A stretch of 64,000 bases of DNA, from contig CBDCNP010000002.1 in the NCBI GenBank assembly GCA_965219415.1, forward strand, positions 768,001-832,000. The letters are read 5' to 3'. A model generated the notes under the pieces. The model made no database searches. It worked only from the letters and a program-made list of their open reading frames with translations, and was not told the origin of the DNA. The position numbers and the translations under genes were made by a program. This document shows positions 43,118-59,020 of the stretch, one piece after another (the first letter of the stretch is position 1; every line of letters begins with the position of its first letter). The DNA comes from Candidatus Marinacidobacterales bacterium. GTDB taxonomy: Bacteria; Acidobacteriota; Vicinamibacteria; Marinacidobacterales; DATDRI01.

Positions 43118-44245
43118 ATGAATAAAGCGGCCGCCGGCCGCGCAATGATCTGTTCACACACCGACGTTGTCGGGAGTCTCCTTCGCCCTCCGGAGCTTCT
43201 TCGCGCCCGCGAGGATCTCGCCGCGGGTCGCATCAGCTCATCGAGCTTCAAAGATATAGAAAACCTCGCGGTAGATGCGGCCATCGAGCTACAAGAAGAG
43301 GCCGGACTGGAAGTCGTCACCGACGGGGAGATGCGAAGACTCTCCTTTCAAAGCCAAATGACTGAGGCGGTCGAGGGCTTCGCCGAGCACGATATCGACG
43401 CCTTCCTCTGGGGTAAGTGGCACAGCCAGGAGCTCGGTGATTGGTCCGTCGAGCGCCCGCTCATCGGTGTCGAGTCGAAGCTCGAACGCCGCCGCCACTT
43501 CTCCGCGGAGGAGTTCACGTACCTCCGGGACCGCACCAACAGCAACCCTAAGGTGACGCTTCCCAGCCCGACACTCTTTACCAACTTTTGGTCCGAGCAA
43601 TCTGCGAAGGTTTACTCGACCGTCGACGCGTTCCTAGCTGATGTCGTCAAGATTTTGCAGGAAGAGGTCGCCGAGCTCGTTCGGAGGGGAGCTACCTACA
43701 TTCAGCTCGACGCGCCGCACTATACGCAGCTCCTCGACCCAAGAACGAGGCCTTTCTATGAGGAGCGGGGCGGGGGGATAGAGAACTGGATCGATCGAGG
43801 CGTCGAGCTCGAGAACGCCGTGATAGGCGATTTTGCCGATGTCACGTTCGGTTTTCACCTTTGACGAGGCAACCAGAACAGCAGGTGGCTGTCCGAAGGC
43901 GACTACGAGCCCATTGCAAAGCGACTCTTCGGTTCCATCCAAGCGCAGCGGCTTCTTCTCGAGTATGACGATGAGCGCTCCGGCTCCTTTGAGGCCTTGA
44001 GGCACGTTCCGGACGACAAGATGGTGGTGCTCGGTCTCATCAATACCAAACTCCCGGCAATGAAAGAACAGTATGATCTCGAAGCTCGCATTCGCGCGGC
44101 CGGCGAATTCATCTCCGCCGAGCGTCTCGCTATCTCGCCTCAATGCGGATTCTCGACGTCCATCGTGGGAAATCGCATCTCGGCGGAAGACCAGAAATCC
44201 AAACTCAAGCTCCTCGTCGATACCGCGACGAGTTTTTGGGGATAA
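43118..44245 (+). CDS. Cobalamin-independent methionine synthase II-like (core MetE/YxjH family) with in-frame TGA, probable selenocysteine
   Basis: DVVGSLLRP, VTDGEMRR, YIQLDAP, then HL[TGA]RGN continuing in the same frame through LEYD and SPQCGF to TAA 44245. Confidence 0.8.
43878..43892 (+). promoter_or_regulatory. Candidate bacterial SECIS hairpin
   Basis: ACAGC-AGGTG-GCTGT. The G-containing loop begins 19 nt after the UGA. Confidence 0.45.
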
Positions 44246-46600: not shown

Positions 46601-47510
46601 ATGCGGATCTGCTCTTTCCTTCCCTCCGCCACCGAGATCCTCTACGCCCTGGGACTCGGGGATTCGGTCGCGGGCGTCACGTTCGAGTGCGACTACCCTG
46701 CCGAGGTTCGGAAAAAGCCGGTGCTGGTCACCTCGAGCCTGTCTCATGAAACGGACGCGGCTGCGATCGATCGGCAGGTGAGCGCCGCCGCCGCGCGGGG
46801 CGAAAGTCTTTATCGCATCGACGCCGAGGCGCTAAAGCAGATCGAACCGGACATCATCCTTACTCAGGAGCTCTGCCACGTGTGCGCCGTGACGCCGGGC
46901 GAGCTCGGCTCCGCGCTCGCAAACTTGTCGCGTGCCCCGCGCGTGATCTCCCTCCATTCCCACAGGCTCGAAGGAGTGTGGCAGGACATCTTGACGGTGG
47001 CCGAAGCCACAGACCGCAGCGCGGCGGGTGAGGCCTTAGTAAAAGAGATTGAAGGACGGCTAGCCGCAGTCGATCAAGCGGTAGGAGCGGTCACCGAGCG
47101 CCCGCGCGTTCTTTGTCTCGAGTGGCTCGACCCGCCTTTCATCGCCGGACACTGGGTTCCAGAGATGGTCCGTCTGGCCGGCGGGGACAGATGCTCTCGG
47201 CCGACCCGGTGAACGTTCGGGGGCGACCTGGGAGGAGCTTCTCGAAACAAAGCCGGACGTGATCGTCGTGATGCCCTGTGGCTACGCGCTCGCGCAAACA
47301 TTGAAGGAATTCCGATCCACCCGACTCCCTGACCGCTGGAAATCTCTGCCGGCGGTCCGAAACGGTCGGGTCTACGCCGTCGACGCCAACAGCTACTTCT
47401 CGCGTCCGGCCCCTCGGTTGGTCGCCGGAGTCGAGATTTTGGCGCAACTGTTTCACCCCGGGCTCGACGCTAAAGCCCTCCCTCCCAGCGCCTTCGCCCC
47501 TCTCATGTGA
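46601..47510 (+). pseudogene. Cobalamin-binding/BtuF-like ABC substrate-binding protein, frameshifted
   Basis: MRICSFLPSATE, ECDYP, TQELCHVCA, GHWVPEM; one extra G near 47185; FSRPAPRL in the next frame. Confidence 0.8.
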
Positions 47511-47551
47511 GAGGGCGAACAAAAGGGTGGTACTTGTTCACCGTACTTGTT

Positions 47552-47571
47552 CACCAAGTGGGTGGCACTTG
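47552..47571. repeat. REP-like 20-bp hairpin element, copy 2
   Basis: Reverse complement of 13665-13684; preceded by tandem GTACTTGTTCACC x2. Confidence 0.65.
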
Positions 47572-47704
47572 GTGTGAAAGGAGGTCACGAGGAGAGAATC
47601 TCGTCTCTCTTTGAAGATACGGAGTTTCAGGCGACCTCGAGCCTCGCTAATATCAACTAGTTGAATAAGGATTCTCATGAGCCTTGAGGTCGACGCTTCC
47701 TCGA

Positions 47705-55980: not shown

Positions 55981-58407
55981 TTAGAACTGGAACGCCGCCC
56001 CGGCCACCGCGGTTCGGCCGGGCATGCGAAAACCATTCTCGAAGTTCTCCCGGTCGAACAAGTTCTCGACCTTGCCGAAGAAACGCACACCCTTGGCTCC
56101 GGCGAGCGGCCAAGTGTAGCTCGCCCCGAGATCCGCCTTCACAATGCCACCGAATCGATAGGTCCGGCTCACGAACGTGACCGGATCGAAAACCGGCGCG
56201 AAGTAACTATCCGACGCGTTGAGCTCGAAGTTCACGTAGAAATCCCGGGCCAGATACTGCGTCGCCACCAACGAGAACTGGTGCTTCGGAATGACGAAAG
56301 CTTGCGTTAGCGCCTCGTCACCCGCGGCGGGCGGCTCGGTGTCGGTGTAGGTATAGGCGACAGCAACATGCAAAGATTCGGTGGGCGTCGCGGCAGAGCT
56401 CAATTCCAGACCCCGGGCGCCTCCCCCCTCGACTCTGCGGTAGCCACCGAAGCGTCCGAACGGATCGGTAGCCGGATCAATAGCACCGGTGAAGTCGAAA
56501 ACGATGACCTCCTTGAGGCGGGTGTCGAAGAAGGTTGCCGAAAGGCTCAACCGTTGGCTAAGCAGTACCTGGTCCACGCCGATATCGTAGCCAAGCGAGC
56601 GCTCCGGCTTGAGCCGCGGATCCCCGAATACCGAATACCCGAACGTGCTGAAAAAAGTACCGAAACGCTCGAACAGCGACGGGGCACGGTACGCGTTCCC
56701 CAAGTGGGCTCGCAGCTTGGTGCCAGAGCTCCGAAAGAAGTAGGCCACCGAACCATCTCCGGTAAGCGCACGCGGCGGATCTTCCACTTGAACCCCCGCG
56801 TAGGGCGCATTCTCGACCGGTGCGAAGATAGGATCGGCCAGGGAGAAAAACTGGGCCCGAAAGGCCCCGGAGACTTGTAATGAGCCGTCAAGAAAGGTCA
56901 GCTGATCTTGAATAAAAAACGTATTGCTGCTTTGTGTCACATCCACCGAAGAGTTCTCCGCGGTATTCTCAGGGAACGAGAAATTGATAAAGGTCTCGGT
57001 TTCGAACTCGTACCCGGCAGTGAAAAAATTCCAGGAAACGAGCTCGAAATCAGCCAGTGCGTAGAACGTGTGGACGCGGCCGTCGAACTCCGACAATGTC
57101 TCGCGACCCGGCTCGAACGATACGCCTTGAGGCCCGTCTTTGAACGCGCGGTCGGTTATCAAGCCGTGATATGCAAGGGTGTATCCAAAAGTCTCCGATG
57201 GTTTTTGCTCGAAACTGACCGCTGCGGAGACCAAGCGGGTGTCTCGGGTGCTATCCGGATCATTAGCCGAGGGAATGAGATTTGCCGCGCCGAGATCGAG
57301 CTCTGACACGGGAGCCCCTTCCTCGAAGCGCCTCACCTCCGATTGCGAGAGAGGCACCGCCTCAATGATTCCCGTAGCGGGAATCGATCCAACCGATTGC
57401 GGCGTTTCGTTGACCTTCGAGAAGGTGTCTGCGGTATAGAGCCTCGCCGACAGCGTCGTCGTGGCGGAGGGGCGCCAGCGAATCTGCCCTTGCACGCTGG
57501 TGTTCTTCGCTTCATCGTCGCCGTCCAATCCCTCGCCGACGTTCACGTGCGACAGACCGATGCTATAGGTCACGCGATCTTCGCTGAGTCCTCCCGCAAT
57601 ACGCGCCCGCCCGCGAAAGAAATCGAGCGAGCCACCCTCGAGCAGCAAGCTACCCCGGGGAGGCCCTCCGCCCTGGGCGGTGACGATATTGATGACTCCG
57701 CCTACCGCGTTTGTCCCGTAGAGCGACGAGCCGGAGCCACGCAAGATTTCGATTCGGTCGAGATCGTTTACCACCAAGCTCTCCATCAACGCGGAGGCAT
57801 CTCCCTGCGTCGATGCGGCGTCCCGAAGCCGGAAACCATCCAACAAAACCGCGGTGTCTTCGCTGCGCAGCCCCCGAATCTTGATGGAAACGAAGGCTCC
57901 GGGGCCGCCCAGCTGCTGAACCCGTAACCCGGGGACCGGGCGGAGAGCCTCCGCAATCGAAAACTCGTTGCGAGCTTCGATTTCCTTATCGTCTACGACG
58001 GTGATGGCCTTCGACACTTGGTCGACGGTTTGTGCGCTACCGGAAGCGGTCACCACGACGTTCTCGTGAACCGCGGCCAACTCCAGTTTAAAGTCCGCGA
58101 CCAAAGAGCCCCCCTGGGCCAACGTAACGGTTCGCACTTCGGCTCGCGAAAAGCCGGGTGCTTCGGTGTTGATCAAGTATTCACCGCCGCCGAGGCGCTC
58201 GAATCGATGCGTACCCGACTCATCGGTGAGCACAGAAAGTCGCACCCGGTTGTCGCGAGTGAAAAGCGATACCTTGGCACGAGCGATCATCGCGCCCTGT
58301 GGATCCTGGATGCGCACCGTGATAGTGCCGGTGGTTTCCTGTGCAGCGGATGAAGTTGCAACCCCCAAAGCCCAGAGCACAACTGCAAGCAAGAGCTTCG
58401 TCCTCAT
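55981..58407 (-). CDS. btuB: TonB-dependent cobalamin receptor
   Basis: Signal peptide, IEILRGSGSSLYG..GGVINI, LKPE, C-terminal FQF; directly downstream of a B12 riboswitch. Confidence 0.88.
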   Translation of the reverse strand: MRTKLLLAVVLWALGVATSSAAQETTGTITVRIQDPQGAMIARAKVSLFTRDNRVRLSVLTDESGTHRFERLGGGEYLINTEAPGFSRAEVRTVTLAQGGSLVADFKLELAAVHENVVVTASGSAQTVDQVSKAITVVDDKEIEARNEFSIAEALRPVPGLRVQQLGGPGAFVSIKIRGLRSEDTAVLLDGFRLRDAASTQGDASALMESLVVNDLDRIEILRGSGSSLYGTNAVGGVINIVTAQGGGPPRGSLLLEGGSLDFFRGRARIAGGLSEDRVTYSIGLSHVNVGEGLDGDDEAKNTSVQGQIRWRPSATTTLSARLYTADTFSKVNETPQSVGSIPATGIIEAVPLSQSEVRRFEEGAPVSELDLGAANLIPSANDPDSTRDTRLVSAAVSFEQKPSETFGYTLAYHGLITDRAFKDGPQGVSFEPGRETLSEFDGRVHTFYALADFELVSWNFFTAGYEFETETFINFSFPENTAENSSVDVTQSSNTFFIQDQLTFLDGSLQVSGAFRAQFFSLADPIFAPVENAPYAGVQVEDPPRALTGDGSVAYFFRSSGTKLRAHLGNAYRAPSLFERFGTFFSTFGYSVFGDPRLKPERSLGYDIGVDQVLLSQRLSLSATFFDTRLKEVIVFDFTGAIDPATDPFGRFGGYRRVEGGGARGLELSSAATPTESLHVAVAYTYTDTEPPAAGDEALTQAFVIPKHQFSLVATQYLARDFYVNFELNASDSYFAPVFDPVTFVSRTYRFGGIVKADLGASYTWPLAGAKGVRFFGKVENLFDRENFENGFRMPGRTAVAGAAFQF

Positions 58408-58500
58408 CAGTAGACCTCCCACTCTGACGCCCTTCGGCGTCGTTGAAGATCCGGACGAGCGGAGTGGGGTCTCGGCGGCAGGCTGGGAGAGCGAGGACGC

Positions 58501-58543: not shown

Positions 58544-58600
58544 CTGATGTTTCCTGCCCTCGAAACCGGACTCTTCCCATCGAAGAGTCACCCGACTTCT

Positions 58601-58792
58601 GGGCTCAGGCAGGTTTCCTGACTTGAGGATCGGTCGCCGCCGCCTGCCTTCCCTCCCTTACGGAAGTGGCTGTCCACCCCTTATCAATAAGGTTCGAACC
58701 AAGGCGGCCGGCTCTCCTACTCACAGTGGCGTGGGCCGTTGGGGCATCTCACCCCATTCCCTATTACCCCGCGATTCGGGCACCTGAGCCTG
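58601..58792 (-). ncRNA. Cobalamin riboswitch
   Basis: AGGTGC..TAATAGGGAA..GGTGAGAT..GCCACTGTG..GCCACT..GGGAAGGC..AGTCAGGAAACCTGCC (B12 box). Confidence 0.93.
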
Positions 58793-59020
58793 TCCGTATT
58801 CAGTTGTCGCCGGAAGTATAGGTGGTGCCATTCAGGGAAAGCAAGGTCGACGACAAGAAAAAGGATCTTGGCGATTTGCGCCTCCGAGCCGTCGAGCGCC
58901 AAAGCTCGTTGCATCAACAGATACAGTGGATGCTTCGTCCCGCGCTATACTTGGATGGTGGGAAAGAAGGCGTCCGTAGTTCTCGGAGCTTTCGACCGCC
59001 GTTCCGTCAGGAGGTGCTCG

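Follow-up and report, generated by a model that had tools for sequence, protein, structure and literature searches.

A putative single-domain MetE-like selenoprotein from Candidatus Marinacidobacterales, with selenocysteine predicted at a zinc-ligand position

Introduction

The window analysed here is a stretch of 64,000 nucleotides from a Candidatus Marinacidobacterales bacterium of the Acidobacteriota (contig CBDCNP010000002.1, positions 768,001 to 832,000 of the forward strand), and the element in question is a frame at positions 43118-44245 (+) that resembles the catalytic domain of MetE, a methionine synthase that works without cobalamin, and is interrupted by a TGA at 43862-43864. The frame very probably represents an intact selenoprotein gene, in which this UGA is decoded as selenocysteine (Sec). 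Comparison with related sequences strongly supports that the UGA has been kept by selection at the codon where homologues carry the first zinc-ligand cysteine (Cys). The evidence comes from conservation of the TGA among genera and families, from purifying selection on both sides of it, from the Sec machinery of the genome and from a candidate selenocysteine insertion sequence (SECIS) element downstream.

Results and discussion

Gene, frame and start

Counted from its first ATG, the interval is a single MetE-like frame of 375 sense codons; it ends with a TAA at 44243-44245 and contains one internal stop, the TGA, in the context CAC CTT TGA CGA GGC AAC, which would read H-L-U-R-G-N. The original prediction, made from the letters of this DNA alone, had placed a sole TGA at the Cys of an HxCRGN motif, with intact LEYD and SPQCGF motifs downstream and in frame, and the translation agrees on both points, showing LLEYD (with E282) and SPQCGF (with C343). 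It had also expected that standard gene callers would split the gene. Under translation table 11, the reading consists of 43118-43864 (248 aa) and small remnants, and a public protein collection does hold exactly the 248-aa truncated product that stops at the TGA (P0002; 100% identity, 66% coverage). The true start is more likely the ATG at 43145 (M-I-C-S-H) than that at 43118, because the former agrees with M-I-T-x-H, the N-terminal consensus of 21 full-length homologues; the predicted protein would then have 366 residues.

Judging from other assemblies, the TGA is not an assembly error, because contigs of two other studies span 43118-43891 with 1-2 differences, none of them listed at 43862-43864. 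Two contigs from independent public runs (X2 and X6) both break within 43862-43891, which may reflect branching of the assembly graph where co-occurring relatives share a conserved SECIS region. A 218-nt contig from an RNA library spans 43118-43303 with 7 differences; its source could be a relative, or else DNA present in the library, and no inference was drawn from it.

Conservation of the TGA and selection around it

Orthologues, defined by identity above 60%, were present in 12 genomes of a class-level sample of 401, ten of them with one TGA and two, both of genus g26, with Cys. The ten TGA forms are spread over genera g1 (three, the window's genome included), g9 (five), g11 (one) and g28 (one) and over families f1, f2 and f8, and in all of them the TGA occupies the same H-x-U-R-G-N codon at identities of 64-87%. 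A second, phylum-wide sample of 401 genomes added two TGA forms and one Cys form, all from other families, which brings the TGA forms to 12 genomes of 6 genera. Metagenome contigs were scanned with a pattern requiring H-x-TGA-R-G-N-Q-x-x-R-W; at least 120 stretches matched and 80 loci were fetched. Among the matches listed, 79 of the 80 loci encode the same protein with U at this codon and one is spurious, a count that is biased by the TGA-demanding pattern and speaks for breadth, not proportion. Altogether, this aligned codon is TGA in 89 Sec forms, compared with TGC or TGT in the 12 orthologues of the Cys form.

Conservation of the TGA in homologues, a check that the original prediction had called for, is therefore seen beyond the window's own genus and family, and TGC or TGT stands there in relatives that are more distant. 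The latter group includes orthologues from several other phyla, among them Pseudomonadota, Chloroflexota and Actinomycetota. Cys is also present in paralogues whose identity does not exceed 49%, including one at 47% in the window's own genome; the tally of paralogue matches (64 of 401 class genomes) includes the unpublished genome G383, and the statements on Sec forms are independent of that genome.

The ratio of non-synonymous to synonymous substitution rates (dN/dS, Nei-Gojobori), which the prediction had also proposed to inspect, was 0.12-0.22 before the TGA and 0.10-0.26 after it in nine Sec-form pairs, including close pairs with unsaturated dS (0.17-0.49). Purifying selection past the TGA is thus as strong as before it, and a decaying 3′ remnant is excluded; the downstream region shows neither a dN/dS near 1 nor indels that break the frame in relatives. 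This bears directly on the possibility that a recent nonsense mutation created a pseudogene ending after residue 248, with the part downstream of it in decay. Such a history could be suspected from the frameshift in a neighbouring gene (46601-47704), from the splitting of the frame under table 11, and from the orthologue in genome G018 (L033, G018:C1:5539862-5540965), which carries an additional stop, an in-frame TAG lying 24 codons upstream of the UGA, and is possibly a pseudogene or the product of a sequencing error in that genome. It is nevertheless extremely improbable for the window's gene, given the same TGA codon in ten class genomes, in two genomes of the phylum sample and in 79 metagenome loci among the matches listed, the equal constraint on both sides, and the downstream catalytic residues, all of which are intact.

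Selenocysteine machinery

The window's genome (8.05 Mb in 3 contigs, 96% complete) contains the Sec machinery for which the original prediction had asked. It encodes selA (569.7 bits), selB (375.8 bits) and selD (328.3 bits) together with a tRNA-Sec (69.7 bits) with the anticodon TCA, all above curated cut-offs. The selD gene (L011, G000:C3:3889655-3890587) is itself of the selenoprotein type and has its own in-frame TGA, a second Sec codon in this genome. TGA also serves as an ordinary stop: among the window's 32 open frames with a length of 300 or more codons, 13 terminate in it. Among the other genomes with TGA forms, selA scored above its cut-off in nine of nine and selB in eight of nine.

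The candidate SECIS hairpin

A hairpin with a G-containing loop starting 14 nt past the UGA had been predicted, and it lies at 43878-43892 (ACAGC/AGGTG/GCTGT). Its stem pairs 43878-43882 with 43888-43892 around the loop AGGUG (43883-43887), an outer G-C pair joins 43876 and 43894, and the gap from TGA to loop is 18 nt. The rules for bacterial SECIS (bSECIS) elements, as given in the legend to Fig. 2 of PMC13188914, describe an apical loop of 3-9 nt, an upper stem of 4-16 bp, a G within the first two positions of the loop with G or U next to it, a distance of 16-37 nt between UGA and loop, and a minimum free energy of at most -7.5 kcal/mol. The window hairpin lies within these ranges, having a 5-bp stem, the 5-nt loop, the 18-nt spacing and an energy of -8.1 kcal/mol, and most relatives have a stem of 6-8 bp, a GGU or GUU loop and a 19-nt spacing.

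Stem and loop are spelled by a conserved Ser-Arg-Trp-Leu peptide (AGC CGG UGG CUG), and the choice among synonymous codons is informative. For the Arg of the loop, the 89 Sec forms use CGG (76), CGT (nine) or AGG (four), with no case of CGC or CGA. For the Arg that immediately follows the UGA, the codon in these sequences is CGC in 53, CGG in 16, CGA in nine, CGT in seven, AGA in three and AGG in one; the loop Arg codon of the 12 Cys forms is CGC in six, CGT in three, CGG in two and CGA in one. Synonymous identity over codons +1 to +11 reaches 0.78, compared with a gene mean of 0.59 (standard deviation 0.06), a value that none of the 332 other 11-codon spans matches. A proposed helix of eight pairs is paired in 86.9% of cells, compared with 22-71% in slid registers. 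Its covariation score of 0.127 was reached by none of 500 shuffles and three pairs are changed on both sides, a kind of score that kin sequences can yield without structure.

These observations could also be considered under the assumption that the UGA is read through without Sec, either by a near-cognate tRNA inserting Trp or Cys, or with Cys supplied through the Sec machinery under selenium shortage. In 85 of the 89 Sec forms the UGA is followed by C, C in this position is a weak termination context, and Cys, which is present in most homologues, is acceptable at the site. Such readthrough is very improbable in view of the SelB-type loop (G-G/U-U), which is kept in 89 of 89 Sec forms as opposed to the mixed codons of the Cys forms, and of the selA genes in all nine tested TGA-form genomes; moreover, a lineage content with Cys would keep TGY like its relatives. 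With Sec as the residue inserted, the hairpin, 18-19 nt downstream of the UGA and with a G-G/U-U apical loop, would recruit SelB together with Sec-tRNA(Sec), so that Sec would be inserted and no termination would occur.

Several observations weigh against this decoding or against the structural evidence for it. With one sequence per genus, the peak of synonymous conservation is weaker and is reached by four of 321 spans. No compensatory double change occurs in the hairpin core, and RNAalifold kept three pairs on 83 sequences and 11 on nine, likewise with no convincing compensation in the core. The 45 nt from the TGA fold with -8.1 kcal/mol (z = +0.65), and 145 of 200 dinucleotide shuffles fold at least this well. 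Cys forms have a similar hairpin too, since it is encoded by the peptide S-R-W-L. Counts overstate the independent support, because the compared sequences are kin, and in the TGA-form genome G002 (91% complete) no selB was found at E <= 1e-70. The energy of the hairpin was accordingly rejected as support (z from -1.04 to +0.65 for the window's 45 nt, for 23 nt and for three relatives). The signal that exceeds chance is the cross-genome conservation of the TGA and of the hairpin sequence, not the hairpin itself. We infer that the peptide-encoded hairpin came first and was later recruited as a SECIS element.

An Rfam search of the window at gathering thresholds returned no SECIS family, the only matches being a cobalamin riboswitch and two tRNAs. 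As a separate observation, the UGA lies in the loop of a possible 4-bp mini-hairpin at 43858-43869 (+) in the window's clade (CCUY UGAM GAGG), where the Arg next to the UGA is encoded by CGA or AGA, which gives rise to it; most metagenome Sec forms, having CGC at this place (53 of 89), lack it.

Protein family and zinc site

The protein matches the Pfam family PF01717 (Meth_synt_2) with 61.4 bits (E 1.2e-16, cut-off 21), and alignment of the 22-sequence family profile with Escherichia coli MetE by hhalign covers 297 columns at a probability of 97.9%. In this alignment, H247, U249, E282 and C343 correspond to the zinc ligands His641, Cys643, Glu665 and Cys726, and S20, E71 and D198 correspond to the homocysteine-binding residues Ser433, Glu484 and Asp599. 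The roles of these MetE residues are those given in the available text of PMC7857596, and an HXCXnC zinc motif is described as essential in that of PMC7005905. The earlier claim that Sec would stand at a zinc-ligand position is supported by the equivalence of U249 and Cys643 in the profile alignment, and Sec probably acts as a zinc ligand in this protein.

Structure prediction is consistent with this assignment. The AlphaFold model has a mean predicted local distance difference test score (pLDDT) of 82.6 and a predicted template modelling score (pTM) of 0.86, and its best Foldseek match in the PDB is 1YPX (E 4.4e-19), followed by MetE barrels with zinc and homocysteine (E 1e-18 to 1e-11). The same entry is the closest solved relative by sequence (E 2.7e-51, residues 14-375). 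The protein would thus consist of one (beta-alpha)8 barrel like the catalytic domain of MetE, in which the U249 selenolate together with His247, Glu282 and Cys343 would bind the catalytic zinc. The zinc could activate the thiol of homocysteine for methyl transfer; the residues that bind homocysteine (S20, E71 and D198) are conserved.

Comparison with known enzymes

Among the closest known systems is the MetE-II family, to which 1YPX from Listeria monocytogenes belongs, with the same length, the same fold and the H-x-C-R-G-N, LEYD and SPQCGF motifs. The name ‘cobalamin-independent methionine synthase II family’ is carried by thousands of Cys forms at 64-68% identity, from which the present protein differs by Sec in place of the zinc motif's first Cys; in the literature consulted, a methyl donor has been demonstrated for no member of the subfamily. 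We take the single-domain MetE-II family to be that of YxjG and YxjH of Bacillus subtilis. Measured by the cut-offs of the corresponding NCBIfam models, the protein is a relative of PRK06520 and PRK06233 and not a member of either.

Canonical MetE (E. coli b3829, and the structures from Thermotoga maritima, Candida and Arabidopsis) shares the zinc and homocysteine residues, and the Glu-to-Cys spacing is 61 residues in both. It differs in length (753 aa versus 375 aa), in possessing an N-terminal folate-binding domain, which is absent here, in having Cys643 where the present protein has Sec, and in the segment from H-x-C to Glu, which is 11 residues longer here; identity in the structural alignment is about 18%. 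The canonical model TIGR01371 matches the C-terminal half only, with 43 bits compared with a cut-off of 929.95.

MesA, MesB (core-MetE), MesC and MesD are presented in the available text of PMC7857596 and PMC7005905 as single-domain MetE-like enzymes in which the residues for zinc and homocysteine are retained and whose methyl group comes from a source other than methylfolate, and none of these families is described there with Sec. The similarity to the MesD structure 3RPD is weak (E 4.1e-07), and the NCBIfam models of short synthases gave at most 100 bits, compared with cut-offs of 258-406. No match to MesX (DUF1852, PF08908) was found in the genome or in any of 14 control genomes. Formate dehydrogenase FdhA (Mo/W-Se) and the [NiFeSe] hydrogenases, as covered in the available part of PMC13188914, likewise have Sec in place of a metal-ligand Cys, Cys homologues and a SECIS element inside the open reading frame (ORF). 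They are redox enzymes with redox-active metals, whereas the case considered here would involve zinc and group transfer.

Possible function

The original prediction had called the protein a core methionine synthase. The resemblance stands; the function was not borne out as a demonstrated one, considering that a full-length MetH is encoded in the genome (1696 bits, C1:1527354-1530896) and that all NCBIfam cut-offs for methionine synthases were missed, including those of the two best-matching models (PRK06520, 236.6 bits versus 313; PRK06233, 211.7 versus 576). The genome has no two-domain MetE above cut-off, and it encodes two Cys paralogues of the present protein (L025, C1:166659-167741, 47% identity; L026, C3:613923-614975, 30%). 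On balance, the conserved residues lean towards S-methylation of homocysteine as the activity of this protein.

A different reading accepts the selenoprotein and takes Sec as a reactive centre, passing through a Se-methyl or Se-S intermediate, or assumes another metal or a selenium substrate, so that the protein would be no methionine synthase. Both as a nucleophile and as a leaving group, Sec surpasses Cys. The presence of MetH would make a second methionine synthase unnecessary, neither a folate domain nor a conserved corrinoid-protein neighbour is present, and neighbours of the TauE/SafE, isochorismatase-family and pyridoxal phosphate (PLP)-dependent types point to small-molecule metabolism of sulphur or selenium. 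This reading is unlikely, since all four zinc-ligand and all three homocysteine-binding positions of MetE are conserved, and since Cys forms (62-68% identity) interleave with Sec forms in the tree and presumably perform the same chemistry.

If Sec is indeed a zinc ligand, selenium would most likely be preferred either as a softer ligand, richer in electrons, that tunes the nucleophile bound to zinc, or because the metal site can then recover from oxidation. A bolder proposal, which we regard as rather doubtful, is a natural catalytic zinc-selenolate in non-redox group transfer, where selenium would tune or relay the methyl group (for example, through a transient Se-methyl selenocysteine), so that a barrel free of folate and corrinoid could use poor donors, and where switching between Cys and Sec would be unusually easy owing to a SECIS stem encoded by SRWL.

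Evolution of the Cys and Sec forms

In a tree of 65 rows, from which L033 and L055 were left out, families f1 and f2 contribute eight Sec forms, which group together in one clade (support of 100 in the Shimodaira–Hasegawa-like approximate likelihood ratio test, SH-aLRT) nested among Cys forms, and the Sec form of genome G060 is placed apart without resolution. A FastTree phylogeny of 121 rows (72 Sec and 49 Cys), prepared without incomplete metagenome genes, L157 and six distant outgroup rows, requires ten changes of the Cys/Sec label by parsimony, at least five of which are forced by well-supported branches, and one clade of 41 metagenome sequences is entirely Sec.

A weaker hairpin would already be available in Cys forms, because the conserved Ser-Arg-Trp-Leu spells it, and a switch could therefore require little more than a change of TGY to TGA and a G or U at the wobble position of the Arg codon. 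Repeated exchange of Cys and Sec, typical of selenoprotein families, fits such a ready-made hairpin.

Features of the gene

The coordinates of the gene, of its predicted Sec codon and zinc ligands and of the candidate SECIS element are collected in Table 1.

Table 1. Positions in the window of the putative selenoprotein gene and of its predicted functional elements
Feature	Position	Strand	Evidence
Putative selenoprotein gene, single-domain MetE-like (PF01717)	43118..44245	+	Translation, Pfam match, N-termini of homologues, fold
UGA predicted to be read as selenocysteine (U249, aligned with E. coli MetE Cys643)	43862..43864	+	Alignment, conserved TGA
Codon of His247, aligned with MetE zinc ligand His641	43856..43858	+	Profile alignment; invariant in 22 of 22 aligned sequences
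Codon of Glu282 (LLEYD), aligned with MetE zinc ligand Glu665	43961..43963	+	Profile alignment; invariant in the family alignment
Codon of Cys343 (SPQCGF), aligned with MetE zinc ligand Cys726	44144..44146	+	Profile alignment; also aligned to PDCGL of Candida MetE
Candidate bacterial SECIS element	43876..43894	+	bSECIS criteria, codon counts, pair counts, peak of synonymous conservation

Gene neighbourhood and other features of the window

In the window, a MacB/FtsX-type permease lies upstream of the gene and an amidohydrolase with a signal-peptide-like N-terminus begins 6 nt downstream. Both neighbours are conserved within the genus only and the context reveals no methyl donor, which is a further point against a methionine-synthase function; a functional link to either of them was dropped on account of this restriction to the same genus. 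Genes that recur around the 89 Sec-form loci are those for a TauE/SafE permease in convergent orientation (31), an ORF for a PEMT/ICMT-like methyltransferase (20), an isochorismatase-family gene upstream (13), UbiD (nine), a PLP-dependent enzyme (seven) and an S-adenosylmethionine (SAM) methyltransferase (seven), counts that are rough because six-frame ORFs in GC-rich DNA include shadows. At L092 (11278-12030, +) and at 30 other metagenome loci, about a third of the Sec-form loci sampled, the convergent TauE/SafE permease gene is separated by no more than about 10 nt from the selenoprotein gene's 3′ end. None of the recurrent neighbour clusters that were compared with Pfam was of the selenoneine type, with no search aimed at sen genes themselves.

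The original prediction had cautioned that nearby genes carry true nonsense mutations. Damage is indeed present, in the form of a frameshift in the gene at 46601, and it has no bearing on the TGA at 43862-43864. This gene (46601-47704, +) encodes a BtuF-like protein (Peripla_BP_2) and is shifted within a GGCGGGG run at about 47185; the intact orthologue in G002 has 302 aa, of which residues 1-195 and 195-302 map to two different frames, and the cause is either an assembly indel or a real pseudogene. A reading of this ORF as a BtuF-type selenoprotein was rejected, since translating its TGA as U gives nonsense sequence and the frameshift is the cause of the interruption. Elsewhere in the window, the cobalamin riboswitch (58591-58802, -; 98.6 bits) lies directly upstream of an ORF of 813 codons (55981-58422, -).

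Novelty and implications

The protein apparently belongs to a genuine selenoprotein family that is uncatalogued in the published lists consulted. Table 1 of a 2026 review (PMC13188914), with 119 prokaryotic selenoprotein families and subfamilies, has no entry for PF01717 or for a methionine synthase, searching the review's text by term likewise gave no hit, and none of the selenoprotein-specific NCBIfam models matched the protein. A literature search returned no paper describing a MetE-like or PF01717 selenoprotein, or Sec as a zinc ligand in this family. The available text of the papers on BSepDB (PMC13326102) and SelCysML (PMC13745706) mentions no methionine synthase or MetE, and their supplementary lists could contain the family.

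The catalogued bacterial selenoproteins are nearly all redox enzymes or thiol-oxidoreductase look-alikes. Sec at the zinc site of a methyl-transfer enzyme, if true, would widen the known roles of selenium in proteins, and the Sec and Cys forms would provide a natural pair in which to study the tuning of a zinc-thiolate nucleophile by its ligand atom. Soil and sediment contigs, as sampled here, contain the family frequently (at least 120 stretches), and the members of the family are annotated as fragments or pseudogenes because gene callers truncate them systematically. It may also serve as an example of how a coding hairpin that pre-exists for protein reasons could be recruited as a SECIS element.

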